IMG/VR virus record: IMGVR_UViG_3300045988_118480
Location: 1-40,965 of that record
DNA from: a virus
Length of the DNA stretch: 40,965 nt
Reading direction: 5' to 3' (one strand)
Below the pieces are notes generated by a model that ran no database searches, was not told where the DNA came from, and saw only the letters and a list, made by a program, of their open reading frames with translations. The translations under genes were made by a program, and so were the position numbers. Position 1 is the stretch's first letter. Every line of letters begins with the position of its first letter. Positions 1,278-40,530 of the stretch are shown here, one piece after another.

Positions 1278-1673
1278 ATGAGATATTTATATTCCGCGGT
1301 CTTTACGCCGTCGGAGGATGAGGGCAAGGTCTATGCCCGCGTGCCCGATCTGCCCGGCTGCATAACCACCGGAAGCTCTTTGCAGGACGCTATCATCCAG
1401 ATCACTGACGCCGCTTCCGGCTGGCTGGTCGTCGCCGAGGATAATTCAATACCCATCCCGCCCGCGACCCCGCAGGCCGATATCGAGCGCGCACCCTCCG
1501 ACATCCTTTCGGTCATCTGTGTCGACACCCTTGCCTATCGCGCCAGAACCGATACGCGGTCGGTGCGCAAAAACGTATCGCTGCCCGCATGGCTGGCCAG
1601 GCTGGCCGACGCCCGCGGCGTCAACTGTTCGCAGGTCCTTCAGGAGGCTCTGATCTCCCGCTTCGACGTCTGA
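1278..1673 (+). CDS. hicB: HicB-family antitoxin with a C-terminal RHH-like DNA-binding tail (131 aa)
   Basis: The N-terminus (YSAVFTPSEDEGKVYARVPDLPGCITTGSSLQDA) is typical of HicB. The C-terminus (VSLPAWLARLADARGVNCSQVLQEALI) is RHH-like. SD aaaaggagg at 1261..1269. Confidence 0.85.
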   Translation: MRYLYSAVFTPSEDEGKVYARVPDLPGCITTGSSLQDAIIQITDAASGWLVVAEDNSIPIPPATPQADIERAPSDILSVICVDTLAYRARTDTRSVRKNVSLPAWLARLADARGVNCSQVLQEALISRFDV

Positions 1674-1747: not shown

Positions 1748-1843
1748 ATAGTAGGGCGGGGAGGTGACGCAGGTATGGACGCTTTCGGGCGGTAAATGCC
1801 GCAGTTGCTCCAGCGCGTCGCCCGTCAGGATTATTTCAGCCAT
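1748..1843 (-). pseudogene. 5' remnant (about 32 codons) of an N6/N4 DNA methyltransferase gene, truncated at the hicAB cassette
   Basis: MAEIILTGDALEQLRHLPPESVHTCVTSPPYY reads as a leader plus the (S/D)PPY motif IV of beta-class MTases. The frame then runs into the hicAB terminator and antisense hicB with no further similarity. Its ATG overlaps the C5-MTase stop by 8 nt. Confidence 0.6.
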
Positions 1844-3650
1844 TGGCGGGCGCCTCCATTCCCACAGGTTCCGGCAGGCGCCAGTCCTCTGCGCGAACTT
1901 GGAAAGCGTCGCCCAGCTGCACGGTGTCCGGGAAATTGTGCTGTGTGGTCTGTACGGCGTATTTGTCAATCTCGGTTGCATAGTAGGCGGTGATCTCCGC
2001 GCCCAGCTTGTCCAGCGCGATATGGCCGCAGCTCATACCGTCGTACATGGAAAGCACTTCCACCGGCTCCTCCGTCAGTCCGGTAAAATGGCTCATAATG
2101 TGGGCAATCACGTCCACGGTCCAGCCGTTGCCCAGCATTTTATACGCCTGGGTGTCGCTGACGGGAAAGGCGTATGTGTCCGGCACGGTCTGGAGGCGTT
2201 TACATTCCGGCACGGTCAGCTTGCGAATGATGTAAAATCCGTCTGCCAGTTTAATGGGGTATGTCTTTCCTTTGATGGTGATCTGTCCGCCGCGAACCTC
2301 GTAAACCGGCATTTGCTTTCCGTCCGCCGTTACAATTAGAACGTTATTGTGTTGCCAATCTCCGTTTGCGGTCAGTGTTGGTGCTTTTTTATATTTCACT
2401 CCACCTAAATTGAAGCCCCGTGGGCGCTGAAAAATCGCGGATTCTACAACCAACCTGCTCTGGTGCCCGGTAGCGGCCACGGCGTTACTTTTCTGGTCGT
2501 CCCGCATTTCAAAAGCGGAACCATTTTCGCGTCCACGCCACGCCATACCAGCAGGCACAGCATAAAGGCCGGTGGCCGCGCCGTCGGCCCCGCCGCCGTT
2601 CGGCCTTGCCTTCAGAGAAACGCTCTTGCCGTCGGTGCTGTAAATGCGGCGGCTTTGGCTGGTGCCCAGTTCTCCGTCCTTGTTCGGCATGGCGCCGACG
2701 CGGACGGGGACGGCAATCATATTGTCTTTCTGAACGGTTGTCAGGCAGTTGGTTTTCTGCGGTTCTTCGTTTACCTCGAAATACTGGAAATGCGGGATCG
2801 CTTCGTTGTAATCGTCGCGGTGGCCTTGCTCGTTGATCCTGCGTCCCACGACGCGCCCAGCCACAGGCACGGCATAAAGCCCGGTTTTTGCGCCCAGGCC
2901 GCCGCCATTCCCACAGAGGGTTACGCTTTTGGCGTCCAGGCTGTAAACACGGTATTGCTGGCTGTCAAAAGTCTGGTTCTTTGCGTCGTTCTCAATGGTT
3001 CCGATCCTCACCGGCTCCACCAGAACGTTATATGGGACGCCCTTGTGGGTGTTCGCCGTCACGCAGGCACTTTTTCCCTGCGTTGCGTCGTGGAAATAAT
3101 CGAAATCAAAATGGTTCCGCCCGTCCTTGGTTTCGCGCACCATATAATCCATTTCTTTTTCGGTCAGCGGCTTAATGGCAACAGGTTCCGCCGCACCATT
3201 CCGCTGGTGTCTGGAAACCATGTCGTCCGCCGTGGTCCCGCCAGTTGTGGACAGCAGGGCATACCCTTTTTCTTTCCAGCAGACACCGCTTTCCAGAATG
3301 TCGCGCAGGAGGATCCCGCGGTCCACCGGCTGCTCCACCGCCACCTGACTGTATGTGCCGTCCGGGTTCCGCCTGCCCACCCAATACAGGCGCTGGCGGT
3401 TTTGTGCGCTTACCAAGGCGCTGTTAATCAGGACAGGCTCCACGCCTAACTCCGCCGTGATCTGCGCCCGGATAGCAGGCGACATACTTTTATTGTTTTC
3501 GTACAGGAAAAAATCCGGCTGGTACTTATCCCGCGCAATACGGTAATTCAAAAACAGTTCCCAGCCTATGCCGCTGGCTTCGGTTTCGCGGTTCTTTGTC
3601 TGTGCGATACTCCAGCGTGTGCAGGGGCTTCCGCCTATAAGTATTTTCAT
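1836..3650 (-). CDS. DNA (cytosine-5) methyltransferase with an apparently circularly permuted motif order and a long multi-module target-recognition region (604 aa)
   Basis: Motif order along the protein: IV (GGSPCTRWS), VI (LYENN), VIII (SAQNRQRLYW), a variable region of about 330 aa, IX/X (RLQTVPDTY...GNGWTVDVI), then I/II (LSMYDGMSCGHIAL...YATEIDKYA..QLGDA) at the C-terminus. SD aaggag precedes ATG 3650. Confidence 0.85.
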   Translation of the reverse strand: MKILIGGSPCTRWSIAQTKNRETEASGIGWELFLNYRIARDKYQPDFFLYENNKSMSPAIRAQITAELGVEPVLINSALVSAQNRQRLYWVGRRNPDGTYSQVAVEQPVDRGILLRDILESGVCWKEKGYALLSTTGGTTADDMVSRHQRNGAAEPVAIKPLTEKEMDYMVRETKDGRNHFDFDYFHDATQGKSACVTANTHKGVPYNVLVEPVRIGTIENDAKNQTFDSQQYRVYSLDAKSVTLCGNGGGLGAKTGLYAVPVAGRVVGRRINEQGHRDDYNEAIPHFQYFEVNEEPQKTNCLTTVQKDNMIAVPVRVGAMPNKDGELGTSQSRRIYSTDGKSVSLKARPNGGGADGAATGLYAVPAGMAWRGRENGSAFEMRDDQKSNAVAATGHQSRLVVESAIFQRPRGFNLGGVKYKKAPTLTANGDWQHNNVLIVTADGKQMPVYEVRGGQITIKGKTYPIKLADGFYIIRKLTVPECKRLQTVPDTYAFPVSDTQAYKMLGNGWTVDVIAHIMSHFTGLTEEPVEVLSMYDGMSCGHIALDKLGAEITAYYATEIDKYAVQTTQHNFPDTVQLGDAFQVRAEDWRLPEPVGMEAPANG

Positions 3651-3664
3651 GTTTCTCCTTTTTT

Positions 3665-3760
3665 CCGGCGCTCTGCCGGGAGGGCGCATGCCCACGCCCC
3701 CCGGCGGTTTAAGGTAATGGAGGAAAAAAGCTGGGCGTCATCCGCCCGGCAGAGCGCCGG
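3665..3760. repeat. 16-bp perfect inverted repeat (3665..3680 and 3745..3760) bracketing the 64-bp spacer upstream of the C5-MTase gene
   Basis: ccggcgctctgccggg and cccggcagagcgccgg. The inner arm ends 4 nt before the MTase SD. Confidence 0.5.
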
Positions 3761-3910: not shown

Positions 3911-4507
3911 TCATTCATGTCCTTCCACCGCTTCGCCGCCGTCGGATTCCAGAATGATTCCAGATTCCGTGAAGAAAGCCGGCCGGACGCCGAGGTTGCC
4001 GTCGCACGCGTAGGCGTTGTACAGACTGCCGACCGTGCTGACAAGGCGCGCGTGGCGCGCGTGGCCGGCGTACGGGGTGACAAGCCACCACCAGTCGTCC
4101 AGGGACAGAAGGGCCTTGTGCTTCAGGAACAGGGCTTCGGGAAGAAGGCTGATCTTCGCCTTCATGTTGCCATAGCCGAAGCCGCCGCGATGGTCAGCCA
4201 GGGACCAGTCCGCGGTCACGATGTTCGCGGAACGGATCGGACCGCCGGCGGCGTCGAAGGCCGCCAGGAAGGGGCCGTTCAGTTCGTCCTTCAGGTAGGA
4301 CAGACTGAAGTCGTTCGGGTAAGGGGTAGGGGCTTCCTCCGGACGGGTCTTCATGGGTTCCAGGGAGAAGGGGCGCCACGCGACCGCCTGGTCGGCGATC
4401 AGAAGGGTCGTTCCGTTGGTCATGTGATCCAGGACGCGGACGTCGATCGGGCCGGCGTCAAAGACGGCCCCAGGGGTCAGGTCCTTCAAAGTCTTAATAT
4501 TTGCCAT
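3911..4507 (-). CDS. Hypothetical protein, DUF6273-like (WWWLVTP...GVRPAFF motifs), 198 aa
   Basis: SD aaggagga precedes ATG 4507. The motif resemblance is from memory only. Confidence 0.7.
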   Translation of the reverse strand: MANIKTLKDLTPGAVFDAGPIDVRVLDHMTNGTTLLIADQAVAWRPFSLEPMKTRPEEAPTPYPNDFSLSYLKDELNGPFLAAFDAAGGPIRSANIVTADWSLADHRGGFGYGNMKAKISLLPEALFLKHKALLSLDDWWWLVTPYAGHARHARLVSTVGSLYNAYACDGNLGVRPAFFTESGIILESDGGEAVEGHE

Positions 4508-4634
4508 GTCGTTTTCCTCCTTCGATTATTTCGATAGACACTTCCACACGGGGTTTCTTCGGGTCCACAGCGACGTCGTCCGCGAAGCCCTCAATCTGGT
4601 TCCAGCCGTCGTTCAGCTTGATGTTGGTTATAGA

Positions 4635-5081
4635 TCAAAACGGCAGGTCGCCGTCCTCAAAATCGGTCTCGGCAAAGTCGGACAAGGGGTCGGTTATATC
4701 GTCCAGCTCAGCGGCGATATCTCGCCCGGCGGGTCTCCCGCTTCCGGCGCTGCCTCTATCACGCTTTGGCTCGGCGAAAAATACCTCTTCGGCCACGACC
4801 TCGACCGCCTTACGCTTATTGTCATTGCGGTCGGTCCACATGCGGGTCTGTATCCGCCCCGAGAGGGCGACCAGCTGACCCTTATTAAAATACTTGCAGA
4901 CAAACTCGGCCGTCTTGCCCCATGCGACGATGTCGATAAAATCGGTCTCGGGCTGTTCGCCGGCCCGCGCGTAGGATCGGGCGACGGCCAGCGCGAAGCT
5001 GCATACCGACGTGCCGCCCTGGGTCTGCTTCAGCTCGGGCGCCGCCGTCAGGCGACCCATGAGCACGGTCTTATTGAGCAT
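4635..5081 (-). CDS. ssb: Single-stranded DNA-binding protein (148 aa)
   Basis: MLNKTVLMGRLTAAPELK... is an OB-fold pattern, and the protein ends in an acidic tail FEDGDLPF. SD gagggagga. Confidence 0.95.
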   Translation of the reverse strand: MLNKTVLMGRLTAAPELKQTQGGTSVCSFALAVARSYARAGEQPETDFIDIVAWGKTAEFVCKYFNKGQLVALSGRIQTRMWTDRNDNKRKAVEVVAEEVFFAEPKRDRGSAGSGRPAGRDIAAELDDITDPLSDFAETDFEDGDLPF

Positions 5082-7593: not shown

Positions 7594-7806
7594 TCACTGT
7601 CCCTCCATCCACCGGATAAAGGCCAGCCGGGGGAACCGTACCTGGTGGCCATAGACCATGTAGGGGAAGGGAAGCAGCTCCGGCCGTTCCCGCGCCATAA
7701 GGCGCAGCGCGTGCGGGTCGATCTCCACGACCTGTGACACGACGTCGGCGGTCAGCATCTCCCTGTCCATCGCGCGGACGTCATCAAGACTGAGTTTCTT
7801 TTTCAT
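7594..7806 (-). CDS. Excisionase/MerR-type HTH protein (70 aa)
   Basis: MKKKLSLDDVRAMDREMLTADVVSQVV..D...LRLMARE..LPFP....G..VRFPRLAFIRWM. SD aaggaggga. Confidence 0.6.
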   Translation of the reverse strand: MKKKLSLDDVRAMDREMLTADVVSQVVEIDPHALRLMARERPELLPFPYMVYGHQVRFPRLAFIRWMEGQ

Positions 7807-8257
7807 CTTTCGCTCCCTCCTTTTTGGCATTGTAGATTACAAGCATAGATGGAAATGGTGCCCCGTCGGCGCTATTTCCATTTTCATCTTCAAAATGTAT
7901 TCGCCCTCGTAGAAACCGGATGTCCGCTTTGCCATAAATATAGTCGTGGAAATATGCCGTATCGGTTCGGGCCGGAATTAACAAAACTATAGGGAATCCC
8001 CCCCTTGCCTCATCAAAGGCCTTTTTTACCCATTTCCCAATTTCGCGGCCGTAAGGGGGATTGCAAAATACGGCGCCGCCTTTATCCCAGCTTTGAGCCA
8101 GACCGTCCGTTTCTGGGGTGTAGTACAAAGGACATTTTGCTGTCTCTTCTGTTGCTGCCGGGTCTAAGGCGAAATTAAACTCGGCATTGAGTTTGTCAAA
8201 AAAGTCCTGTGGCGTACACCAACACATATTTTTAGAGGATAACAGCGTCTTGTTCAT
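7784..8257 (-). CDS. Phage Dam-type N6-adenine DNA methyltransferase (157 aa)
   Basis: WCTPQDFFDKLNAEFNFALDPAA...FCNPPYGREIGKWVKK...LIPARTDTAYF...FLRGRIHF matches the T1/phage Dam family (PF05869-like). Confidence 0.85.
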   Translation of the reverse strand: MNKTLLSSKNMCWCTPQDFFDKLNAEFNFALDPAATEETAKCPLYYTPETDGLAQSWDKGGAVFCNPPYGREIGKWVKKAFDEARGGFPIVLLIPARTDTAYFHDYIYGKADIRFLRGRIHFEDENGNSADGAPFPSMLVIYNAKKEGAKDEKETQS

Positions 8258-8450
8258 CTTCCGCCCCTTCCTCCGAAAGTGTCCGCACGATTGCCGCGAC
8301 CTGTTCAAAGTCCAAATAGATGGGCTTGTTCTCTGTGATCCCCTTGATGTCATATCCGACGACATTCCCGAGGCCGTCCCGTTTTAGCGTGAATTCTGTG
8401 CATTTGACATCAAATACGACGCCGCTTTTAAGGACTATCCTTATCGTCAT
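8232..8450 (-). CDS. Hypothetical protein (72 aa)
   Basis: SD aaaggag sits 7 nt before ATG 8450. Confidence 0.55.
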   Translation of the reverse strand: MTIRIVLKSGVVFDVKCTEFTLKRDGLGNVVGYDIKGITENKPIYLDFEQVAAIVRTLSEEGAEDEQDAVIL

Positions 8451-8774: not shown

Positions 8775-8803
8775 TTGCATACAACTTTTCGTTGTTATAT
8801 TAT
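8775..8803 (+). promoter_or_regulatory. Rightward (repressor) promoter: TTGCAT, 17-nt spacer, TATTAT
   Basis: -35 at 8775..8780 and -10 at 8798..8803, just upstream of the SD and ATG 8822. Confidence 0.55.
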
Positions 8804-8821
8804 TGCAACGAGGTGATACTC

Positions 8822-9130
8822 ATGGATACATGCCGTCTTAAAGCTCTTATAACCGCTTCTGGCCACTCTCAAAAAGACATAGCCACGTCTCTCAATTTGG
8901 GCCAGCAGCGCTTTAATTACTATGTAACGGGCAAACGTGAGCCGGACAATAGCACCCTTGTTGCCATAGCTTCGTTTTTTAATGTCTCGACCGATTATTT
9001 GCTCGGCCACTCTGACAGCCCCACGCCGGCACGTGACAATTTGCTTAAAATGGCTGCCGAGACTGATGATCCGGAAGAGCTGCTTGCTTTGCTGGACATT
9101 GTCAATAAAAAACTACAAGAGAGAAAATAG
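8822..9130 (+). CDS. CI-like XRE-family repressor (102 aa; no peptidase domain)
   Basis: MDTCRLKALITASGHSQKDIATSLNLGQQRFNYYVTGKREP is an HTH_3 pattern. The gene is divergent from the cro-like gene. Confidence 0.8.
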   Translation: MDTCRLKALITASGHSQKDIATSLNLGQQRFNYYVTGKREPDNSTLVAIASFFNVSTDYLLGHSDSPTPARDNLLKMAAETDDPEELLALLDIVNKKLQERK

Positions 9131-9141
9131 GAGGATCTATT

Positions 9142-10134
9142 ATGAGCACATCCGGCCTTGATGCTTTGCAAAAGGGGATCACAGCAAAGGAACCGGTCTA
9201 TAAGATAGCTAAACCGATCCGAAAGATGACAAAGCCATTGACTTTTATCGGGGTATTTCTGCTTGTCAGTTTCTTTTTTATAGCCACGGATTCGGCTCCG
9301 GAGATCTTACAACGATTGTGGACCTATTCTTTTGCCCTTTGGTTTTATTTTTCCATTGGTTTCTCGATCAGTCGATCTATCGGTGTGAGATACATTAACA
9401 AAAACGCCTGGCAGTTACCTTCGCTTTTGTCAGATATGGAAAAGTCCTATGACCTCGAAGAATATTTCCAAAGCCGAGATGAACTTATTAAGTATCTCTG
9501 TAAAATGGCAAGATGGGAAAACTATAAAAGTGCGCTCAACTCAAAGCCGACCGTCTTGCTTGCCGAACTGGAAACAACAAAGACAGAAAGTATAAATAAC
9601 GCAATCCGTCGCTCTGCCGCTCATTGCCGGGACCTTACCCGCAAACATAATTCATCCTTCGCCGAAATCCTAAAAGATGATATTTATAGTCATCGTGGCC
9701 GCCTGAACGATGAGAATATGGCTGTATATGAGGAATGTTATAAGAGCGTTGAATCTTTGGCCCAGGTCGTCGGAACAATAGATGAGGTCGATATTATGTC
9801 CGGCAATGACTTTGAGCATTGGTGCGCCGATCTACTGGCTCACAACGGATTTACCAACGTCATTGTCACTCAGGCCAGCGGCGACCAGGGCGTTGACGTC
9901 ACAGCCACAAAGGGCGGCGTCAAATATGCTGTGCAGTGCAAATGTTATTCTTCAGACCTCGGCAATACTCCGGTGCAGGAGGTCTATGCCGGTAAAGCAA
10001 TGTATGAGTGTCAGGTAGGTATTGTTATGACCAACCGGTACTTTACGGCGGGCGCAAAGACTCTTGCCGCCAAAACCGGCGTGCTTCTTTGGGACAGGGA
10101 CAAATTAATCGAGCTTATGGCAAACAAGATATAA
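9142..10134 (+). CDS. Membrane-anchored protein with a C-terminal Mrr-type (PD-(D/E)xK) restriction endonuclease domain (330 aa)
   Basis: Two hydrophobic helices (FIGVFLLVSFFFIA and YSFALWFYFSIGFSI). C-terminus: GNDFEHWCADLLAHNGFTNVIVTQASGDQGVDVTA...YAVQCKCY...VQEVYAG. It starts 9 nt after cI, and SD aggagg is present. Confidence 0.8.
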   Translation: MSTSGLDALQKGITAKEPVYKIAKPIRKMTKPLTFIGVFLLVSFFFIATDSAPEILQRLWTYSFALWFYFSIGFSISRSIGVRYINKNAWQLPSLLSDMEKSYDLEEYFQSRDELIKYLCKMARWENYKSALNSKPTVLLAELETTKTESINNAIRRSAAHCRDLTRKHNSSFAEILKDDIYSHRGRLNDENMAVYEECYKSVESLAQVVGTIDEVDIMSGNDFEHWCADLLAHNGFTNVIVTQASGDQGVDVTATKGGVKYAVQCKCYSSDLGNTPVQEVYAGKAMYECQVGIVMTNRYFTAGAKTLAAKTGVLLWDRDKLIELMANKI

Positions 10135-10163
10135 AAAAAGAGCGCCCCGCGGGGCGCTCTTTT
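10133..10163. terminator. Bidirectional rho-independent terminator
   Basis: An A7 run, the agagcgcccc/ggggcgctct palindrome, then TTTT. It sits between convergent genes. Confidence 0.8.
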
Positions 10164-10173
10164 GAGGAAGGTT

Positions 10174-10335
10174 TTAGGTTTTCCGTTTGCTTATCCTTGA
10201 TTTATTTAGTTTTTCGATAAAATTATTAATATCCTTTTGTACTTCGACACATTCCGCTTCGGTCAGCGTCTGTATCTTTGCTGTTAATTCTGCCCGGTAT
10301 TGTTCGAGCACCACCGGAGCCGTCTTGTTAGCCAT
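10174..10335 (-). CDS. Hypothetical small protein (53 aa)
   Basis: ATG 10335 follows SD ggagaaagag and overlaps the upstream ORF by 8 nt. Confidence 0.45.
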   Translation of the reverse strand: MANKTAPVVLEQYRAELTAKIQTLTEAECVEVQKDINNFIEKLNKSRISKRKT

Positions 10336-10531
10336 GACTGCACTCTTTCTCCAGCGCCGGGATGACCGCGGCCGCGAAGGTCTCAAGCGACGCCGCGTCT
10401 ATCTTGTCGATGTCCCGTGTGCCGTATAGCATCTCGAGAGCCGCTTCCAGCTCTGGCCGTCGAGGGCTGCTGCGTATCTGTTCCACGATCTTTACTTTGT
10501 CCATTTTTACACATCCCGTTTTTTCTTCCAT
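10328..10531 (-). CDS. Hypothetical small protein (67 aa)
   Basis: An ORF with a weak SD. It lies between the integrase and repressor modules. Confidence 0.45.
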   Translation of the reverse strand: MEEKTGCVKMDKVKIVEQIRSSPRRPELEAALEMLYGTRDIDKIDAASLETFAAAVIPALEKECSHG

Positions 10532-10679
10532 TGTAGGCCTTTATCTCTTGGAAAACAATGGTAATGATGGACAAATAAAGGTAAATATTTTCTACCTGCT
10601 AAAATACCGCAAAAAGCCGTTTTTTCGGCATTTTATATGTTATGATGGGGGTGTGTTCTTTATTTTTTGACACACAGCT

Positions 10680-10711
10680 AAAATAAAAGACCCGCCGATA
10701 TGCGCGGCGGG
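10680..10711 (-). terminator. Rho-independent terminator (minus strand)
   Basis: cccgccg-N7-cggcggg followed on the minus strand by TCTTTTATTTT. Confidence 0.55.
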
Positions 10712-10816
10712 CCTCACAGGATGTGGACAAAGCAATTAGCCCACGGATAGGACTATTTAAGTATACCACTTTTTGGGTGCTTTGTCTACCTCCAAATACA
10801 TAAGGAGGCAAAAAAT

Positions 10817-11983
10817 ATGCAATGCAAGAGCTGTAAGGGCCAAATCCCCGAGGGCGGGCGCTTTTGTCCATTTTGTGGCCGAAAAGTGGCCGGATTAAAA
10901 AAGCCGAAGCAGCGCGGCAACGGGCAGGGGACCGTATACCAGCTGCCCAATAAGACATGGATCGCGGCCCGTGTACAATATGACGTCGACCGCAACGGCA
11001 AAATGCGCAAGCGGTCAATATCCAAATCCGGCTTTAAAACCAAAAAAGAGGCCCTCGAGCATCTGCCGTCGCTGTCGCTGGCCGCGGTCGATCTGCCCGG
11101 CAAGCCGGCGCGCAGGAATACGGCCGTTACGTTTGGACGGTTGTATGATCTGTGGCTGCCGACCCACAAGGCGTCAAAATCGACGATTGACTGCTATCGT
11201 GCCGCTTCCCGATACTTTGCCGCCGTGTGGGATATGCAGATCGCAGACATAACGGTCGACGACCTGCAAGGCTGCCTGGATGATTGCCCCAAGGGCAAGC
11301 GCACCATGCAAAATATGAGGGCGCTGTGCGGGCTTATGTATAAGTACGCCATCCCGCGCAATCTCAACCCCACCGGGCTTAATATGGCCGAGTATCTGAC
11401 CATCAATGCCGACAATACATTTGACCCAAAGGATGCGCTGCCGCTTGACGCCCTGGCTAAGATAGAGCGTGCCGTCGGCGTCGTGCCGGGCGCGGACTAT
11501 GTTGTCTGTCAATGCTATCTCGGCTTCCGGCCGTCGGAGCTGCTTGCCCTCGACGCCATCAATTATAATCGCAAGGAGCAGGCCCTTGTCGGCGGCGCAA
11601 AGACCGACGCCGGGCGCGACCGCGTCGTCACCATATCCCCAAAGATCCAGCCGATAATTTCCCGGCTGACAAAAGACCGGGTATCCGGGCCTATATTCTG
11701 CACACCTTCAGGCGGCCGGATGACCACAAAGGCCTACCGTGCGCTGTTTTATTCGGTGTTGGACGCCTGCGGCATAGACAATCCCGTCATAGCGGCTAAC
11801 GGCGTAGAGCGTCGCCGGTACACGCCGCACAGCTGCCGCCATACCTTTGCGACCCTGCTTAAAAACATCAATGCGGCCGACAAGGACAAGCTGGAGCTTA
11901 TGGGACATACCAGCGATGCAATGCTCCGACACTATCAGGATGTATCATTCGCCGACCTGCGCAAGATAACCGACGCAATTTAG
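10817..11983 (+). CDS. int: Tyrosine recombinase / phage integrase with an N-terminal zinc ribbon (388 aa)
   Basis: CKSC-x10-CPFC at the N-terminus. C-terminus HSCRHTFATLL...LMGHTSDAMLRHYQD (the R..HxxR..Y pattern). SD aaggagg. Confidence 0.92.
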   Translation: MQCKSCKGQIPEGGRFCPFCGRKVAGLKKPKQRGNGQGTVYQLPNKTWIAARVQYDVDRNGKMRKRSISKSGFKTKKEALEHLPSLSLAAVDLPGKPARRNTAVTFGRLYDLWLPTHKASKSTIDCYRAASRYFAAVWDMQIADITVDDLQGCLDDCPKGKRTMQNMRALCGLMYKYAIPRNLNPTGLNMAEYLTINADNTFDPKDALPLDALAKIERAVGVVPGADYVVCQCYLGFRPSELLALDAINYNRKEQALVGGAKTDAGRDRVVTISPKIQPIISRLTKDRVSGPIFCTPSGGRMTTKAYRALFYSVLDACGIDNPVIAANGVERRRYTPHSCRHTFATLLKNINAADKDKLELMGHTSDAMLRHYQDVSFADLRKITDAI

Positions 11984-14209: not shown

Positions 14210-14611
14210 TTACAGTTTCTCGACCGTGACGGCGAGGTTGTTGACCGTCGCGGCGACGCCATCGAGGGCGAGGGACAGGATCGAGTTGCCGCAGCCGCAG
14301 ATATTGCGGACAATAGCGGTTATCGACAGATTTGTTGTCGTTGCTGCGGCGGCGACCGTTGCCGACGCTGTGGCGCCGATAATCGCCACGCCGTCCTTTT
14401 GCGCAGATAGGGCGACCGTACCGGCGGCCGAAGGTGTGACCGTGGCCGAGATATTAATCAGGTAATAGCCCTGGCCGCAAAGGGTGATCGTGTTGCCGTC
14501 CTGCTTGATGCAGTTTCCGTAGCGTCTTGTCGTTACGCCTACCGGGACAACAGAGCCCGCGGGGACTACAGGGGTAGATGTGTTTGTGGTATATATAGCG
14601 GATCTTGCCAT
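14210..14611 (-). CDS. Beta-rich protein, possibly a C1q/TNF-like (BclA-C-like) jelly roll (133 aa)
   Basis: Alternating Thr/Val/Ala strands, GYYLINISATVTPSAAGTV, ending in VTVEKL. SD aaaggagaa. Confidence 0.55.
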   Translation of the reverse strand: MARSAIYTTNTSTPVVPAGSVVPVGVTTRRYGNCIKQDGNTITLCGQGYYLINISATVTPSAAGTVALSAQKDGVAIIGATASATVAAAATTTNLSITAIVRNICGCGNSILSLALDGVAATVNNLAVTVEKL

Positions 14612-14632
14612 GTGTTTTCTCCTTTCTTTTTT

Positions 14633-14667
14633 TCAAAAAGGCAGGGCGGATATTCCCGCCCTGCCTT
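14633..14667 (-). terminator. Rho-independent terminator (minus strand)
   Basis: aaggcagggcgg-N6-ccgccctgcctt followed on the minus strand by TTTTG. Confidence 0.6.
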
Positions 14668-14699
14668 GCCTCGCCGATAGGGCGTTACTGCCTATTGGG

Positions 14700-15350
14700 T
14701 TAGATATTGCCGTTGCATCCGCAGCCGCTATTGCAGCCGCAAAACGGCGACGCGCCGGCGTTATATGTGTATCCCATCGGATACCTTACGACGCCGCAAA
14801 AACGGGAATCCATCTCAAGGCTGTTGATCTTGTCCCTAAGGGCCTGGATCTCGTTAGTCTGGATGAGCGCGCGGGTTGCCTCGCCCTCTGCGTGGATAGC
14901 AGATGTGATATCACATGTCTGTCTATCCATCTGGGCAGACAGGTTGGCGGTCGCCAGCCTCTGCTCGCAGCAGCAGTTAGCGAGCTGCTGCTGTATAGCG
15001 TTGCCTGTCGACATAATGGTCTGGCCGAGGTTGGACTGTCCAAGGGCTACCTCCTTGCCGAGCTGGCCGATATTGCCCTGCATCTCATAGCCGAGGTTGC
15101 AGATGCCGTTGCCGATGTTGGTCAGGCGGTCGTTGATCTGGCCAAACTGCTGACCAAAGAGTATCTCCTGCTGCGAGGCGGCCGTTGCGTACTGGCCGAA
15201 TTCGCCCTGGCGGTTAAAGCCGTTGCCGCCGTTAAATCCCCAAAAGAGGAACAGCAGCACCAGCCATATGGCGCCGTTTCCGCCCCAACCGTCATTCTCT
15301 TTTGTGATAGCAGCGAGGTCGGACAGACTATAGTTATCCGTAAAAATCAT
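14700..15350 (-). CDS. Membrane protein with a Q/N/G-rich coiled region and a Cys-rich C-terminus (216 aa)
   Basis: TM segment AIWLVLLFLFWGF, repeated GQ/NIG segments, and the end FCGCNSGCGCNGNI. Confidence 0.6.
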   Translation of the reverse strand: MIFTDNYSLSDLAAITKENDGWGGNGAIWLVLLFLFWGFNGGNGFNRQGEFGQYATAASQQEILFGQQFGQINDRLTNIGNGICNLGYEMQGNIGQLGKEVALGQSNLGQTIMSTGNAIQQQLANCCCEQRLATANLSAQMDRQTCDITSAIHAEGEATRALIQTNEIQALRDKINSLEMDSRFCGVVRYPMGYTYNAGASPFCGCNSGCGCNGNI

Positions 15351-15390
15351 CCTTTCTTAATCTATTCTCAAGCCGTTGCGCACCGGCCTG

Positions 15391-15418
15391 TTGACAAAGC
15401 AAATAGTAATATTATAAT
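15391..15418 (+). promoter_or_regulatory. Near-consensus promoter (TTGACA, 16-nt spacer, TATAAT) for the HNH gene
   Basis: -35 at 15391..15396 and -10 at 15413..15418. Confidence 0.7.
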
Positions 15419-15440
15419 TAAAACCACAAGGAGGGATCTG

Positions 15441-16034
15441 ATGGAAAATTGGAAACCCGTTGTCGGTTTTGAAAGTGTATATGAGGTAAGCGATGCGGGA
15501 GATGTACGGTGCATTAACCAGCCTGATAAGTATCGCAAAGTGTCAACGTCAAGGACCGGTTATCAATTTGTCCGCTTATACACTCCCGAAGGGGAACGAA
15601 AGAATAAGTTTGTCCATCGTTTGGTCGCTGATGCATTTATTCCTAACCCCAACCAGAAAACACAAGTAAATCACAAGGACGGAAACAAATCAAACAATCG
15701 CGTCGACAATCTTGAGTGGGTTACCCCGGCCGAAAATATCAAACATGCTTTCGCGTGTTTGGGACGTACCAGCCCGCAAAAAGGTGTCACTGGTAAGCAA
15801 AACAAAAACTCTATCCCGGTCTATCAATATTCTCTCGATGGAAACTTTGTTAAAGCCTATGATGGGGTTTCCGATGCTGCGAGAGCTATTGGGTGCAATG
15901 CTTGCTCGATAATCAGCGTCATTGTCGGTCGAAATGTCACCTGTCATGGTTATTTATGGTCATACACGCGGGCAGACCGTATTGACAATACCCGGGTCGA
16001 GCAACGCAAAACCCATAAAAAATGGGGCTTATAA
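15441..16034 (+). CDS. Free-standing HNH homing endonuclease (NUMOD4 plus HNH_3 type; 197 aa)
   Basis: WKPVVGFESVYEVSDAGDVR; FVHRLVADAFIPNP...VNHKDGNKSNNRVDNLEWVTPAENIKHA. SD aaggaggg. Confidence 0.9.
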   Translation: MENWKPVVGFESVYEVSDAGDVRCINQPDKYRKVSTSRTGYQFVRLYTPEGERKNKFVHRLVADAFIPNPNQKTQVNHKDGNKSNNRVDNLEWVTPAENIKHAFACLGRTSPQKGVTGKQNKNSIPVYQYSLDGNFVKAYDGVSDAARAIGCNACSIISVIVGRNVTCHGYLWSYTRADRIDNTRVEQRKTHKKWGL

Positions 16035-35815: not shown

Positions 35816-35857
35816 CTTCCTTCCTTTGCGCTTCCTTCAGGGGTTAAAACGCCCTCG

Positions 35858-37016
35858 CTACTGTTTGATGATTACTGCCTTTTCTCCTGTTAGTTTTTCC
35901 CACCGGCGGACAATTACGTCGCAATACTTAGGGTCGAGCTCCATGACATACGCTTTCCGGCCGTTTTGCTCGCAGGCTATAACCGTGGTTCCGCTCCCGC
36001 CAAACAGATCGAGGACGACATCGCCGCCCTTTGTATTGTTTTTGATCTGATAGTCAATGAGCTTTACCGGCTTCATCGTCGGGTGCTCTTTATTTTTTGT
36101 CGGCCGGTCAAACTCAAGTACTGTTGTCTGCTTCCGGTCGGACGCCCATAGATGCCCGGCCCCGGCCTTCCATCCATACAGGCACAGCTCATGTCTCCAT
36201 TGGTAATCCTGCCGTCCAAGCACCATCGCATTTTTGACCCAGACAAGCACTTGCCTAACCTCCCATCCCACCTGCCGACACGCCTCCTCAAAGGCATATG
36301 CCTTTAAGGAGGCATGCCAAATATAATACACAGCGCCGGGCTTGAGCGCAGCGTCGGCAGCTGCAAAGGCGGCCCGGAGGAAACCTACAAACTCAGCGTC
36401 ATCTTTTGCGTCATTGGCGATTTTTAGCGCATCTTTGGTCTTGCCCGTGTAGTCGACCCCATATGGTGGGTCTGTAAGAAGGATATCTGCTTGTATCCCC
36501 CCCCATAAGCTCTTGTACGCACTCTATTGACGTACTATCTCCGCACATTAGGCGATGTCTCCCGAGTTGCCATATGTTGCCGACCTTGGTTATGGGAGGA
36601 TTTATCTCATCAACGTCTGGGGCTTCATCTTCTTCAACCTCTGGCTCTTCGGCCTCCGGCAGCCCCCAATCAAAGTCAAATCCCGTTAAGTCCAGATCGT
36701 CCAGTTCCAGGGCCAACAGGTCAATGTCCCATGGGCTCTCATTGGTCTTGTTATCTACCAGCCGCAGGGCTCTTACTTGCTCCGGCGTAAGGTCGTCCAC
36801 GCAAACGCAGGGGACCTCATCCATACCAAGCTGCTTTGCGGCCAGCGCGCGGCAATGGCCGATCACGATGACGCCGTCACAATCTATCACAATCGGCTGT
36901 ACAAAGCCGTATTGCTTGATACTCTCCGCGACATTGTCGATCTGCTTTTTGTCGTGTTTTTTTGCATTTTGCGTATATGGGATGATATCTTTTAACTTTT
37001 TTGTTGTGATCGTCAT
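35858..37016 (-). CDS. ParB-like domain / N6-N4 DNA methyltransferase fusion, interrupted by a frameshift at a G8 tract
   Basis: Upstream frame (36411..37016): a ParB-like N-terminus then LMCGDSTS. Reading the tract as G7 gives MGGIQADILLTDPPYGVDY..., continuous with the 35858..36331 frame (DLFGGSGTTVIACEQNGRKAYVMELD). Confidence 0.8.
36497..36504. repeat. C8/G8 homopolymer at the ParB-MTase frameshift point
   Basis: ttgtatCCCCCCCCataagc, counted directly. Confidence 0.9.
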
Positions 37017-37192
37017 GGATAGCCTCTCTTTTGCAGCCGCACCCACCCCTTGCTTACGCCGCAATCTCTCCCTGCATCTGCGGCCATATCCGTAGATGCA
37101 ATATGCCTATTACCATTCTGGCCGCTTCTGGCTGGAAAATCTATACAAAAATATTGTAAAAGTTATGTCGTGCTCTCCCTCAAAAATATTTT

Positions 37193-37236
37193 TGCCATTT
37201 TGGCATTTTGCTATTGAGTTTTGTGCCATTTTGGCA
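37193..37236. promoter_or_regulatory. Two copies of the 13-bp palindrome TGCCATTTTGGCA (37193..37205 and 37224..37236)
   Basis: Exact copies. The second fills the -35/-10 spacer and abuts the -10. The first lies just upstream of the -35. Confidence 0.7.
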
Positions 37237-37242
37237 TATAAT
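37214..37242 (+). promoter_or_regulatory. Promoter (TTGAGT, 17-nt spacer, TATAAT) of the plus-strand three-gene operon
   Basis: -35 at 37214..37219 and -10 at 37237..37242, about 50 nt upstream of ATG 37293. Confidence 0.7.
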
Positions 37243-37292
37243 ATAGTCACAGGATAAAACAAAGCAAAACAAACACACAGGAGGACAAAATC

Positions 37293-37640
37293 ATGTTAAT
37301 CAAATCTACAACCAACGGAAAGCTCTACAACATCAGGCTCGCAGAAATAGACGCCAAACTCGGCACTCGCGTCACTGACATTCTCGAAGAGTTAGATGAC
37401 AACTTTGTTGCCGATCACGCGGTCGACGGGGCCACTAATGCTTACCTTGCATCGCAAGAAGAAATCGATTCGATGATTTCTTTTTGGCGTAGCGAGGCTG
37501 CGGCTTGGGACCGTTGCGATTCAGAGTGCTACCTCGGCGATCCTGCGGACTTCTTTTCGGCCGATATTGTTGAGGATGCCCGCGAGAACGGCTCAACACT
37601 CCCCCTCTACTATGCTGTATTTGTGGACGAGATTGAGTAA
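37293..37640 (+). CDS. Small, strongly acidic hypothetical protein (115 aa)
   Basis: SD aggagg. By my count, about 25 Asp/Glu against about 8 Lys/Arg. Confidence 0.7.
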   Translation: MLIKSTTNGKLYNIRLAEIDAKLGTRVTDILEELDDNFVADHAVDGATNAYLASQEEIDSMISFWRSEAAAWDRCDSECYLGDPADFFSADIVEDARENGSTLPLYYAVFVDEIE

Positions 37641-37749
37641 CAGCAGTTTGCAAAAAGTGAAAGCCATACGACGGAGAAATCATCAAAGAGGATACGTGGT
37701 ACACCCTCCGCGATGGGCATGTCGTTGAGATTAATGAGGAGGATTATTA

Positions 37750-38148
37750 ATGCTTGTAAAAACATCTATACCCCAGGGTCCTATCACTCCATCACAATTT
37801 AGCTTTGCAGTCCGTGAGGCCGGTAATTATACCGATCGTGACGCCTATGTGTCTGACATTGCTCTGTCGGACATATGGGGCGCTGATGATCGCGACCAAA
37901 CTGCCGCTTCCCCCGACACTTCTGTTCTTCTTCCCCTTTTTTCCGATCTCTGGGACGTCATCCACATGCCTTTCCGCGACATTCGCCTGGCTCTCGGCAT
38001 GTCTTGCGCCGATTTTGCGGCGGCTTTTGCCATACCTCGCCGGACCCTATACCGGTGGGATCTCAATGAGACGCCATGCCCCCTCTACACCAAATTACTG
38101 CTTGCTCATGCTGCGGGGCTCTATGATTACCCCTGCATCAGGAGGTAA
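37750..38148 (+). CDS. Protein with a C-terminal XRE-type HTH (132 aa)
   Basis: FRDIRLALGMSCADFAAAFAIPRRTLYRWDLNETPCP. SD gaggagga. Confidence 0.7.
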   Translation: MLVKTSIPQGPITPSQFSFAVREAGNYTDRDAYVSDIALSDIWGADDRDQTAASPDTSVLLPLFSDLWDVIHMPFRDIRLALGMSCADFAAAFAIPRRTLYRWDLNETPCPLYTKLLLAHAAGLYDYPCIRR

Positions 38149-38153
38149 CGGCC

Positions 38154-39227
38154 ATGTCGCGTAAAAAACAGCCGGTCTATCCACCGATAGATTTTTTGAA
38201 AAAAATATCCGCGCGCTACCCTGGCATCTGGGATGAGATCGAGCAATTTCGAGCGCTCAACGGATCGTCGGCCAAACTCACCTGGGAGCCCTGGTGCTAT
38301 ATCCCGGCGATTGCCTCTTTGTCCATCCTTAGACAGCGTTTCCACCTCGACGGCGATTTGCATCAACTGCCCCGCGATCAGATAGAGGGCATCGCATCTG
38401 TGGCTTCCTATTTTTCCGCTTTGGCTCCGTGGCGTCAAAGCAAAGAGGTGTATGTCATGGATGAGGGCATGCAGGAGCTGCTTTTTGACCAGGCCGGGGA
38501 CTTGTCTCTTGACGCTGATATATTGCTGCGTTTGCCGTATCCCTGCTTTTACATCCAGTTTTCCCCGGCGGTAGTTTTTGCCGGTGAACAATATCATGGA
38601 GTATTTGTCCATCTCGATGACAATTTTGTCGAGCATCAGCAACAACTGACCTTGATATTTCTCCAGCCGGACGGCGAATCTACTATGATTGTCCCCGTCC
38701 ATCTCGAGGCTAAGACGATCTCCGAGAGTATGGCCATTACCGAGCGTCTCATCATGCGCACCCTGCCGGATAAGGCATCCGCCGTGGCACAACAGTTTGA
38801 GCTCCTTCGGCGCACGATGCAGCTTGTCTTGTATATATGCGCTCAAAACGCAGAGATAACCCCCAGTCCCGAGCAAGTCTCGCACACTAAGCGCTCTTCG
38901 GCCGGCGTGATCGTCGACCGATACGCCGAGATACGCAAGTGGGATGTGGGCATAAGGGTCGGCAACGCGGTACGCAATTACCGCAGACAGCAAGAGACCA
39001 CGCCCGTTGATGCTCTTGTCCGTACTCATGCTTCGCCCCGGCCGCACATGCGCCGCGGTCATTGGCATCATTTTTGGACCGGCCCTAAAAACAAGCCCGC
39101 CGAGCGTAAGCTGATCCTGCAATGGGTCGCACCTACCTTTGTGACTGCTTCCCACAAGGGCGACACTCCCGTCGTCCTGCACCGTGTGGACATGCCGGAC
39201 ACCGACGACCAGCCGCCCAAAGCGTGA
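38154..39227 (+). CDS. Hypothetical protein (357 aa) with a C-terminal basic His/Trp motif
   Basis: SD aggagg. C-terminus RPHMRRGHWHHFWTGPKNKPAERKLILQWVAPTFV. The family is not recognised. Confidence 0.7.
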   Translation: MSRKKQPVYPPIDFLKKISARYPGIWDEIEQFRALNGSSAKLTWEPWCYIPAIASLSILRQRFHLDGDLHQLPRDQIEGIASVASYFSALAPWRQSKEVYVMDEGMQELLFDQAGDLSLDADILLRLPYPCFYIQFSPAVVFAGEQYHGVFVHLDDNFVEHQQQLTLIFLQPDGESTMIVPVHLEAKTISESMAITERLIMRTLPDKASAVAQQFELLRRTMQLVLYICAQNAEITPSPEQVSHTKRSSAGVIVDRYAEIRKWDVGIRVGNAVRNYRRQQETTPVDALVRTHASPRPHMRRGHWHHFWTGPKNKPAERKLILQWVAPTFVTASHKGDTPVVLHRVDMPDTDDQPPKA

Positions 39228-39324
39228 GGCGTGCCGCTTCCGTTGTATGTGACAAAAGCCGGTATTTTTACCCCCAGAGAAAAAATTGAGTAGTGGAGTA
39301 CCCCTCAAAAAAAATCCATTTTTT

Positions 39325-39358
39325 AGCCCGGGCCGATTTGTTCAGCCCGGGCTTTTTT
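39325..39358 (+). terminator. Rho-independent terminator of the plus-strand operon
   Basis: agcccgggc-N11-gcccgggct followed by T6 A T8. Confidence 0.75.
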
Positions 39359-39746
39359 ATTTTTTTTCCAGATATGCCTTTATGACATGGGCCGCATCGT
39401 CCCAGCCCTTACATACGCATGCGCAATAGCCCTGATTTCTCAGGGCTGCTATCCACCATTGCTGTGCCGGGCTGACCCGGCCGCCTTTGACACGTTTGAG
39501 CTCTATGTACAGGCCATGATATCCGCCCCGCGCCACGGGGAGGCAGATATCAGGCACTCCCGCTTTGACCCCCTCGGCCCGGAAGCGCCCGGCCTCTGAC
39601 TTACTCCGGCTGCCGCCGTTGGGTATGTGATACATCAGGGCAAGCTCGGGCCATCGTCCGGCCGCCAGCGCCGCCCACTCAAACAGCAGCTGCTGCTCCT
39701 GGCTCTCGGTCAGATCTCCCACGGCCGCCCTTGTTATGCCGTCCAA
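39357..39746 (-). CDS. VRR-NUC domain nuclease (about 121-129 aa; TTG or GTG start)
   Basis: HIPNGGSRSKSEAGRFRAEGVKAGVPDICLPVARGGYHGLYIELK...SPAQQWWIAALRNQGY. The only upstream in-frame ATGs in the track ORF lie inside rep with no SD noted. SD aaggagg lies upstream of TTG 39746. Confidence 0.8.
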   Translation of the reverse strand: MDGITRAAVGDLTESQEQQLLFEWAALAAGRWPELALMYHIPNGGSRSKSEAGRFRAEGVKAGVPDICLPVARGGYHGLYIELKRVKGGRVSPAQQWWIAALRNQGYCACVCKGWDDAAHVIKAYLEKK

Positions 39747-40530
39747 CCTTACGCCGCACCTCCTTGTATGTGCCGTCTGTGTTGATGAGGGTATACTCCT
39801 GCCATGCGTACCCCGTGACATCGTGTATGCCCTGGCGGACAAACTCGCCGCTGTCCTCATCCTTCAGCAGCGCCCAGCCCTTCGGCGCGCGGGGCTCCTT
39901 TGCCCAGTTGCCGGCCATGACGATCTCATATTCGGGCGTCGGCCTGACCATGCCCTGGGCCGCCGTGTACCGCTTGTATCTCGGCTTACCCGCTTCGGCC
40001 CATCGCTTTGCCGTGCTCTCGCTCTCTTTGAGCAGATATTCAGCCAGCTTGCGATGATCGGCGCGGTCGTCGAGGGGCTTGACCGACACGTTGCCGCCGC
40101 GATCACCCAGCACCTCTCGCCATACCGACGTCAGCACGGCCAGCTCGACCGGCGGCAAAAGGATATGATGGTGCACATTGGTCATGCGCTTTGTCTCGGT
40201 AACGGCGACATACTTCCAGGTCACGCCTGTCTTTGTCAGCCTCTTTTTGAGCGCGGACAAAAATGCCTTACGGTCGGCCTCGGCCTGTTCCAGCGTCACC
40301 GACTTGTCGTAGTAATGCAGGGTGATATGTAGGTCGCCCTCTCCAAAGTTGGCATTGATAAGCCATCGGAGGGTATCAGCCCTGCGGCGGTCATTGCATC
40401 GGCGCTGCCTATCCGTAAGGCTGCCCGATACCGCTCCCCTTGACGCCCCGACGGTATGCACCCGGCCGGTATACATCTTTTTGACCTCTGTTATCCTGCC
40501 GCACCTGACGGTACGCTTGACATATGGCAT
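39679..40530 (-). CDS. Replication initiator-like protein with an HUH-type motif (283 aa)
   Basis: GDLHITLHYYD..., KYVAVTETKRMTNVHHHILLPP (H-hydrophobic-H). Basic C-terminus. Confidence 0.55.
   Translation of the reverse strand: MPYVKRTVRCGRITEVKKMYTGRVHTVGASRGAVSGSLTDRQRRCNDRRRADTLRWLINANFGEGDLHITLHYYDKSVTLEQAEADRKAFLSALKKRLTKTGVTWKYVAVTETKRMTNVHHHILLPPVELAVLTSVWREVLGDRGGNVSVKPLDDRADHRKLAEYLLKESESTAKRWAEAGKPRYKRYTAAQGMVRPTPEYEIVMAGNWAKEPRAPKGWALLKDEDSGEFVRQGIHDVTGYAWQEYTLINTDGTYKEVRRKVGRHNKGGRGRSDREPGAAAAV

Follow-up and report, generated by a model that had tools for sequence, protein, structure and literature searches.

A putatively autoregulated operon with an AcrVA2/FinQ family gene in a temperate gut siphophage is a probable anti-defence locus

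What is the role of a compact three-gene unit that is read from the plus strand of a temperate phage genome from the human gut, has its own promoter and terminator, and carries two copies of the same palindrome at its start? The unit lies at positions 37193 to 39368 of the window analyzed here, i.e., the whole stretch of 40,965 nucleotides (nt) that corresponds to positions 1 to 40,965 of the IMG/VR virus record IMGVR_UViG_3300045988_118480. A preliminary description had compared it to anti-CRISPR (acr) and anti-CRISPR-associated (aca) operons, based on the two inverted repeats at the promoter, a small acidic protein (gene 1), and a helix-turn-helix (HTH) protein (gene 2), and had stated that no part of it matched a family that could be named. 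Our computational analysis supported the proposed kind of operon, while the family-level evidence came from gene 3 and not from gene 1. Gene 3 belongs to the family of the anti-CRISPR protein AcrVA2 and the plasmid protein FinQ, so that one part of the operon does have a name, and the gene 2 family is associated with a stereotyped promoter in many other phages. We consider it likely that the locus is an autoregulated anti-defence operon of the acr-aca type carried by a temperate siphophage of the human gut. The features of the operon, with positions in the window, are the following.

37193..37205, operator O1: palindrome TGCCATTTTGGCA, with its 3′ end 8 nt upstream of the −35 hexamer
37214..37242, plus strand, sigma-70-type promoter: TTGAGT (37214-37219), 17-nt spacer, TATAAT (37237-37242), 10 of 12 consensus positions
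37224..37236, operator O2: second exact TGCCATTTTGGCA, filling the −35/−10 spacer and abutting the −10 hexamer
37279..37284, plus strand, ribosome-binding site of gene 1: AGGAGG, 8 nt before the ATG, closing an A/C-rich leader (read from the sequence)
37293-37640, plus strand, gene 1: 115 amino acids (aa), very acidic
37750-38148, plus strand, gene 2: 132 aa, conserved N-terminal segment and C-terminal XRE-type HTH
37975..38058, plus strand, HTH of gene 2: aa ~76-103, recognition helix ...AIPRRTLYRW...
38154-39227, plus strand, gene 3: 357 aa, starting 5 nt past the stop codon of gene 2
39045..39068, plus strand, gene 3 codons H298-M-R300-R-G-H303-W-H305: conserved HxR...H motif found in the C-terminal region of AcrVA2
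39325..39368, intrinsic terminator: 9-bp G+C-rich stem (39325-39333/39345-39353) and T-run to 39368

The sequence and the list of open reading frames (ORFs) indicated one compact transcription unit with a single promoter, three ORFs, each preceded by an AGGAGG-type ribosome-binding site, and a single terminator. The promoter and the positions of the palindromes were as first described. The operator TGCCATTTTGGCA is a 13-nt palindrome present in exactly two copies, separated by 31 bp centre to centre or about three helical turns, and a third copy was not found in the 41-kb window even when 2 mismatches were allowed. The number of exact copies in 100 dinucleotide-preserving shuffles was 0, i.e., two exact palindromes are not expected by chance. 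In all relatives O1 is retained in the form TGCCATTWTGGCR, and relatives have TTGACT or TTGACA as the −35 hexamer. The terminator, also anticipated before, consists of a hairpin (39325-39353) with a free energy of −23.5 kcal/mol (z = −4.2) followed by the T-run; it is overlooked by a simple scan because the loop is 11 nt long. The opposite flank of the hairpin carries an A-run, so that the terminator is probably bidirectional and also serves the convergent VRR-NUC gene. A search of Rfam with positions 36800-39600 produced sub-threshold matches only, located on the terminator hairpin. The G+C content drops slightly over gene 1 (0.47-0.49 against 0.52-0.63), and therefore the composition gives no clear signal of a recent foreign origin of the cassette.

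Gene 3 provided the family-level link. Its single match among the PDB sequences was AcrVA2 (7ci1_A, E 7.8e-9, aa 80-331 against 67-317). In a translated plasmid search, gene 3 aligned with annotated FinQ of IncI-type plasmids (28% identity, 97% of gene 3 covered, E 2e-19). The search returned 551 records, most of them from plasmids of Escherichia, Salmonella, and Shigella; 12 of 15 records sampled across the ranking carry a finQ annotation. Gene 3 also matched phrog_6160 (E 3.3e-49). In a large protein collection with precomputed annotation, PF26125 ("AcrVA2-like") was carried by all 120 homologues among the matches listed, and the exact gene 3 protein belongs to the cluster of P0001, a representative that is 98% identical and carries PF26125. 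The hmmscan search of gene 3 against Pfam gave no match, which was not counted against membership since the library copy apparently did not include PF26125, and the PADLOC and NCBIfam scans returned nothing usable. At the residue level, W93, D103, H298, R300, and H303 of gene 3 align with W79, D89, H286, R288, and H291 of AcrVA2, and the five residues are invariant across 13 diverse homologues, down to 38% identity. AcrVA2 is less active with the substitution W79A or D89A and inactive with H286A, R288A, or H291A (Marino et al., bioRxiv 10.1101/2022.11.29.518452). Taken as sequence comparisons, these results give good support to the assignment of gene 3 to the AcrVA2/FinQ family.

The AcrVA2 protein of the Moraxella bovoculi prophage (PDB 7CI1/7CI2; PF26125) and gene 3 are similar in length, are both borne on mobile elements, and have the five key residues in common. 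However, their identity is low, the HMMER alignment starts at residue 80, and the N-terminal and middle regions differ. Furthermore, gene 3 is located with a gene-2-type HTH gene and a gene for an acidic protein instead of next to acrVA1, and the host is probably one of the gut Clostridia. FinQ, the fertility inhibition protein of IncI-type plasmids, is a homologue over the full length of gene 3, and FinQ and AcrVA2 have been placed in the same family (Marino et al., bioRxiv 10.1101/2022.11.29.518452). FinQ is encoded on plasmids of Enterobacteriaceae and is directed against F-plasmid transfer genes, whereas gene 3 belongs to a phage and is found in a different phylum. When gene 3 of the window was compared to that of the sister phage L005, aa 230-349 were 93-97% identical but aa 31-90 and 151-229 were only 27-33% identical. 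This divergence by domain suggests that target-recognition parts have been swapped on a constant effector part.

The kinship with FinQ brings with it another possible purpose. Gene 3 of the prophage, expressed at a low level limited by gene 2, would destroy an mRNA encoded by a competitor among the mobile elements, e.g., a superinfecting phage or a conjugative element, and the operon would then serve mobile-element conflict or superinfection exclusion. The full-length homology is in favor of this view. FinQ inhibits F-plasmid transfer and appeared to lower the levels of transfer-gene mRNA, and AcrVA2 homologues including FinQ are widespread on mobile elements, mostly in hosts without Cas12a (Marino et al., bioRxiv 10.1101/2022.11.29.518452). 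The phage is temperate and has an integrase, and the homologue in Lactobacillus phage JCL1032 is part of a unit located between the lysis genes and attP, a typical place for genes expressed from a prophage. On the other hand, a strong promoter that is shut by the operon's own product, together with many small acidic cargo genes, has the design of an early anti-defence locus. In addition, the phage carries three DNA methyltransferase genes and therefore invests heavily in the evasion of host defences. A FinQ-like purpose is, in our assessment, rather unlikely.

Two groups of gene 3 homologues deserve a separate description. In JCL1032 (L002), a cultured temperate phage, the AcrVA2-like gene is ORF32 (3980-4891 of the locus; 33% identity), which together with one downstream ORF forms the terminator-flanked unit mentioned above. 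This phage would give an accessible experimental system for the AcrVA2-like family in Firmicutes. Large IMG/VR contigs (L032-L068, L079, L092, and L094; mostly 77-150 kb) have AcrVA2-like genes that are 42-45% identical to gene 3 and are often located ~0.3-3 kb from the contig end. A 65-71-aa ORF overlaps the stop codon of these genes by 4 nt, and several of them have a coupled acidic 144-149-aa ORF upstream. These arrangements suggest a location near the genome terminus with a different set of partner genes.

Is the operon controlled by its own second gene, as an acr-aca operon would be? The C-terminal XRE-type HTH claimed for gene 2 was supported by a profile of its family, which matched the XRE protein 2ppx in the PDB (E 2.4e-4). 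Gene 2 matched phrog_25567 with E 1.9e-8. The structure model is confident (predicted local distance difference test score, pLDDT, ~80) at aa 57-121 only, and this region superimposes locally on XRE domains with a root-mean-square deviation of 1.6-2.0 Å; a fold search with the model found no significant match to the whole model. PADLOC and NCBIfam scans of gene 2 returned nothing usable, and its motifs were not found in the AcaFinder supplementary files. Gene 2 represents a family of XRE-type HTH proteins not described before. A role as the immunity repressor of the phage was considered and rejected because there is a separate CI-like HTH_3 gene beside the integrase, within 8792-11983, and the operator is confined to the promoter of the operon.

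A search with the family alignment of gene 2 identified 61 further loci in viral contigs, and the promoters were surveyed at 60 loci with a full-length homologue. At 57 of these 60 the operon starts with TTGNNN, 2-4 nt, a 13-15-nt palindrome, and TANNNT, with the palindrome abutting the −10 hexamer. The sequence of the palindrome changes together with the recognition helix. Helices with ...RTLYRW..., as in the lineage of the window, pair with TGCCATTWTGGCR. Those with ...RTVEDW... pair in nearly all cases with CCACGC-N3-GCGTGG, the operator counterpart being CCACGCATTGCGTGG where the RTLYRW helix has TGCCATTTTGGCA; the sole exception is L142, with CCACGG...CCGTGG. Those with ...RTVENW... pair with CCACC or CCACT and never with CCACGC. 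In L105 both operators have the identical two substitutions, and the O1-O2 spacing is 42 bp instead of 31, the additional 11 bp corresponding to about one helical turn. Since many of the 60 loci belong to near-identical phages, this covariation rests on ~15 distinct operators from a few clades. The joint change of operator and helix makes it very probable that gene 2 acts as an Aca-like autorepressor of its own operon.

This arrangement resembles that of known Aca-controlled acr promoters. In known Aca families the number of inverted repeats is one or two, and the core promoter always contains one of them (PMC9410906). As at the promoters controlled by Aca1, Aca2, and others (PMC9410906, PMC6765145), the promoter in the window is consensus-like and has one repeat in its core and a second one nearby, and a small HTH protein is encoded together with an Acr or, in this case, an Acr homologue. 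Gene 2 differs from Aca proteins in its extra conserved N-terminal segment and in its location between cargo genes rather than at the end of the operon.

The contribution of gene 1 had to be approached mainly through its relatives. Its composition is exactly as counted before, 25 D/E and 8 K/R, for a net charge of about −17 and an isoelectric point (pI) of 4.05. An exhaustive profile search of 1.84 billion representatives returned 33 proteins at E<=1e-3, of which P0129 (627 aa) was discarded as a false positive, being a low-complexity repeat protein. The relatives are mostly 95-120 aa long, very acidic, and have the motif LRxW..PDCFxDLE..F..H...A..AT..E...LIxWW..EV..AN.G. Gene 1 is therefore, as judged by sequence, a member of a rare family of acidic phage proteins. 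A fold search with its structure model gave no significant PDB match (best E = 1), the family profile found nothing in the PDB below E 0.3, and among viral structures the model matched only uncharacterised gut-phage proteins. Of the suggestion that gene 1 is a DNA mimic, the acidic composition stood, and a sequence or fold match to any mimic was not found. Ocr and ArdA are likewise small and strongly acidic, but gene 1 resembles no solved structure in sequence, profile, or fold. Nothing but charge speaks for mimicry, and charge by itself does not make a protein a mimic.

Members of the gene 1 family lead small operons that end in a gene 2 homologue (L107, L111, and L202), a ribbon-helix-helix (RHH) gene (L201), or an HTH_3 gene (L203). 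Variable small cargo beside a conserved regulator is the pattern used for the discovery of Acr proteins by association, and gene 1 is therefore a reasonable anti-defence candidate.

Does the locus behave as an accessory element in related phages? Contigs of ~13-42 kb (most of them ~39-42 kb) have the same three genes at the same place, between the small terminase gene on one side and the VRR-NUC and rolling-circle Rep genes on the other. The window is close to "Siphoviridae sp. cthae16" (~40 kb, human metagenome), in which gene 2 is labeled "transcription repressor" and gene 3 "hypothetical protein". Gene 1 occurs as two allele types that are ~40-50% identical to each other. The gene 3 alleles have 98, 90, 86, 74, and 62% identity and a distribution different from that of the gene 1 alleles, i.e., the cassette is a mosaic. 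The HTH half of gene 2 is almost invariant among the same relatives. In L105, which is also the locus of a natural fusion of genes 1 and 2 (P0130), two extra genes are inserted behind the promoter. Across the gene 2 family, the slot between promoter and gene 2 is occupied by ~20 unrelated cargo families, many of them proteins of 60-120 aa with pI 4.1-4.7; zinc-ribbon proteins occur there too. The independent lineage L008 has the promoter, two small genes, an AcrVA2-like gene, and a gene 2 homologue, which is the canonical acr-then-aca order. Other, more distant AcrVA2-like genes are preceded by small DNA-binding genes of the XRE, RHH, or excisionase type.

The slot between the small terminase gene and the cassette (35816-37192 in the window) varies as well. 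It is empty in L003, L005, and L103, and contains a ParB-methyltransferase gene in the window and L004, and in L101 ParB together with a Mom-like DNA-modification gene. The slot has the appearance of a hotspot, next to the acr-like cassette, for genes of DNA modification (anti-restriction). Gene 1 is thus not invariant, both the neighbourhood and the cassette show gene turnover, and none of the three genes belongs to a replication or recombination family. These observations support the view that the cassette behaves as an accessory anti-defence locus.

Some further details of the cassette were observed in individual loci. In L007, L009, and L090, a small RHH protein is encoded directly ahead of the AcrVA2-like gene, in line with the RHH-type Aca proteins (Aca14) recently described (PMC13551039). 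The spacer between genes 1 and 2 is 109 nt in the window (37641-37749). In L004 (4508-4597) it holds a 29-aa ORF with a ribosome site of its own; in the window and L005 the spacer is of the same length, has a sequence different from that of L004, and is without a start codon; and in L003 and L101 it is just 16 nt and gene 2 is 7 aa longer.

The fusion P0130 permits another view of genes 1 and 2. This protein of 230 aa, encoded directly upstream of an AcrVA2-like gene in a close relative, joins the modules of genes 1 and 2, and the fusion suggests that the two proteins form one complex. Genes 1 and 2 could then be a regulatory switch of the phage itself, in which gene 1 is a partner or antagonist of gene 2 without an anti-defence role and the pair would set the time at which gene 3 or nearby late genes are expressed. 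The two genes are found together in many phages without an AcrVA2-like gene, and a GenBank protein identical to gene 2 bears the label "transcription repressor", both of which are in favor of a switch. However, the slot of gene 1 is held by the ~20 unrelated families in other gene 2 operons, and relatives of gene 1 are paired with the unrelated RHH and HTH_3 regulators, as expected of interchangeable cargo rather than a dedicated partner. No other operon of the phage would be under this operator, because it is absent elsewhere in the genome. Fusions of an Acr to an Aca-like domain also have precedents in AcrIIA1 (PMC9410906) and in AcrIIA15 (PMC10901769) and AcrIF24 (PMC9001735). P0130 likewise joins a cargo-like domain to an HTH domain, although its order, cargo and then HTH, is the reverse of that of AcrIIA1, in which the HTH is N-terminal, and in the window genes 1 and 2 are separate. 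Because the cargo is interchangeable, we consider a dedicated switch improbable.

Toxin-antitoxin operons have a similar outline. In this case genes 1 and 2 would be toxin and HTH antitoxin, with the toxin first as in HigBA and gene 2 doubling as autorepressor. HigA2, too, combines a neutralising part at the N-terminus with an HTH at the C-terminus, and higB lies ahead of higA. The gene 2 family profile weakly matches this antitoxin (E 0.017), and it has been noted that acr-aca and toxin-antitoxin operons may share an origin (PMC9410906). The extreme acidity of gene 1 does not fit a toxin. Toxins of the RelE/HigB type are basic. Moreover, gene 1 matches no toxin family in Pfam, NCBIfam, PADLOC, or the PDB, the slot upstream of gene 2 is occupied by many unrelated families, and a natural fusion of genes 1 and 2 exists. 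A toxin-antitoxin pair is accordingly a highly improbable explanation.

Several observations weigh against the operon being of the acr-aca type, and they have to be set beside the evidence in its favor. In addition to the modest number of distinct operators behind the covariation, the Pfam matches of gene 2 at aa 78-103 (HTH_28, E 8e-4, and HTH_23) are both under the cut-offs, and no Aca chain was found among the PDB matches of its family profile up to E = 10, the comparison covering Aca proteins with solved structures. Gene 2 is the central gene and precedes the Acr homologue, whereas aca usually follows acr. Gene 1 had no match in Pfam, PHROGs, NCBIfam, PADLOC, or the PDB, and no known inhibitor was matched; its structure model, a mixed alpha/beta fold built from 4 sequences, is of moderate confidence (pLDDT 71.7). 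The fusion P0130 would agree equally well with a regulatory partnership of the two proteins as with gene 1 being an inhibitor. Finally, because homologues of AcrVA2 are typically found where Cas12a is absent (Marino et al.), "anti-CRISPR" is perhaps the wrong label for the target. Nonetheless, we consider an autoregulated anti-defence operon the probable explanation of the locus.

How could an autoregulated anti-defence operon of this composition work? Upon entry of the phage, the strong sigma-70 promoter would fire, and the three genes would be translated from their strong ribosome-binding sites. As the gene 2 protein accumulates, it would bind the O2 palindrome as a dimer, and probably O1 as well, cooperatively, three helical turns upstream. 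Bound gene 2 protein is predicted to exclude RNA polymerase and to throttle the operon to a low level, as Aca proteins do at acr promoters, and low-level expression may persist in the lysogen. By homology with AcrVA2, the first bacterial protein reported to recognise a nascent polypeptide and trigger the destruction of the mRNA that encodes it, gene 3 would recognise a particular target protein by a short segment while that protein emerges from the ribosome and trigger destruction of the target mRNA. The C-terminal HxR...H region would provide the effector function, and the variable N-terminal and middle segments would select the target, which could be Cas12a, another host defence protein, or, as with FinQ, a gene of a rival mobile element. 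Gene 1 would be one of many interchangeable small acidic cargo proteins, which most likely inhibits a component of host defence at the protein level, a role that we infer from this context alone. It may cover pre-existing target protein, which is out of reach for an inhibitor of synthesis; complementarity of protein-level and synthesis-level inhibition has been argued for the AcrVA1/AcrVA2 pair (Marino et al., bioRxiv 10.1101/2022.11.29.518452).

The rest of the genome is that of a temperate siphophage. The cassette had been described as an inversion in an otherwise minus-strand genome. This turned out not to be accurate, since there are further plus-strand islands: a gene for a HicB-like protein (1278-1673), the lysogeny module (8792-11983), and an HNH gene (14580-16034). 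The lysogeny and methyltransferase genes are the following.

8792-9130, plus strand: HTH_3 CI-like repressor
9142-10134, plus strand: protein with an Mrr_cat restriction-endonuclease domain
10817-11983, plus strand: integrase
1836-3695, minus strand: 619-aa DNA methyltransferase
7784-8365, minus strand: Dam-type DNA methyltransferase

Located between repressor and integrase, the Mrr-type gene resembles a defence gene encoded by the prophage. The HicB-like gene at 1278-1673 (plus strand) corresponds to an antitoxin. The third methylase gene in the count given above is the frameshifted ParB-methyltransferase gene. This gene, for a ParB-N/N6-N4 DNA methyltransferase at 35858-37064 (minus strand), is interrupted by a +1 frameshift and therefore reads as two ORFs, 36411-37064 and 35858-36331; the frameshift lies where the coding strand has a run of 8 G (C8, 36497-36504). 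In L004 the run has 7 G, and there is one intact 385-aa gene. The frameshift could be a sequencing error, the mark of a pseudogene, or on/off switching by slippage. In the divergent intergenic region there is an 11-nt inverted repeat with one mismatch (37073-37083/37090-37100; TGCATCTGCGG / CCGTAGATGCA), upstream of the ParB-methyltransferase and terminase genes on the minus strand. All relatives have this repeat with small changes, and it may be a regulatory or packaging-related site. On the other side of the cassette, the longest VRR-NUC ORF (167 aa; 39357-39860, minus strand) overlaps the end of the rolling-circle Rep ORF (39679-40530, minus strand) by 182 nt. The true VRR-NUC start is probably internal because the gene is called at 124-132 aa in the relatives.

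The relatives of the portal protein found in bacterial genomes are mostly from Oscillospiraceae and other Clostridia, with a few in contigs that are probably mis-binned. They have the packaging module alone in common with the phage, and the cassette is missing. The host is probably a bacterium of the Oscillospiraceae or other Clostridia in the human gut.

Part of what is reported here was already known, i.e., the gene 3 family, which is curated, and the logic of acr-aca operons. New elements are the gene 1 family, the domain-wise replacement in gene 3 between sister phages, and the gene 2 family, whose promoter is easily recognised and whose cargo families are many; they are useful leads rather than surprises. 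A broader interpretation is possible, and we advance it only tentatively: a large, previously undescribed class of anti-defence cargo loci in phages of gut Clostridia may be recognisable by the gene 2 family and its stereotyped promoter (TTGACA, 2 nt, palindrome, TATAAT), the ~20 cargo families, which are small, mostly acidic, and include gene 1, may be new inhibitors of host immunity, and genes 1 and 3 may form a two-pronged pair in which segment swaps retarget gene 3. If this is correct, the pair would combine inhibition at the protein level with co-translational destruction of mRNA, and near-identical phages, by exchanging N-terminal and middle segments of gene 3, would redirect that destruction to different host proteins. 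The sister phages, with a nearly identical C-terminal region of gene 3 and replaced N-terminal and middle regions, are natural variants for mapping target specificity and finding the targets. The gene 2 family and its promoter offer a practical anchor for the discovery of anti-defence genes in phages of gut Clostridia, where Aca anchors are few and most genes are unannotated.

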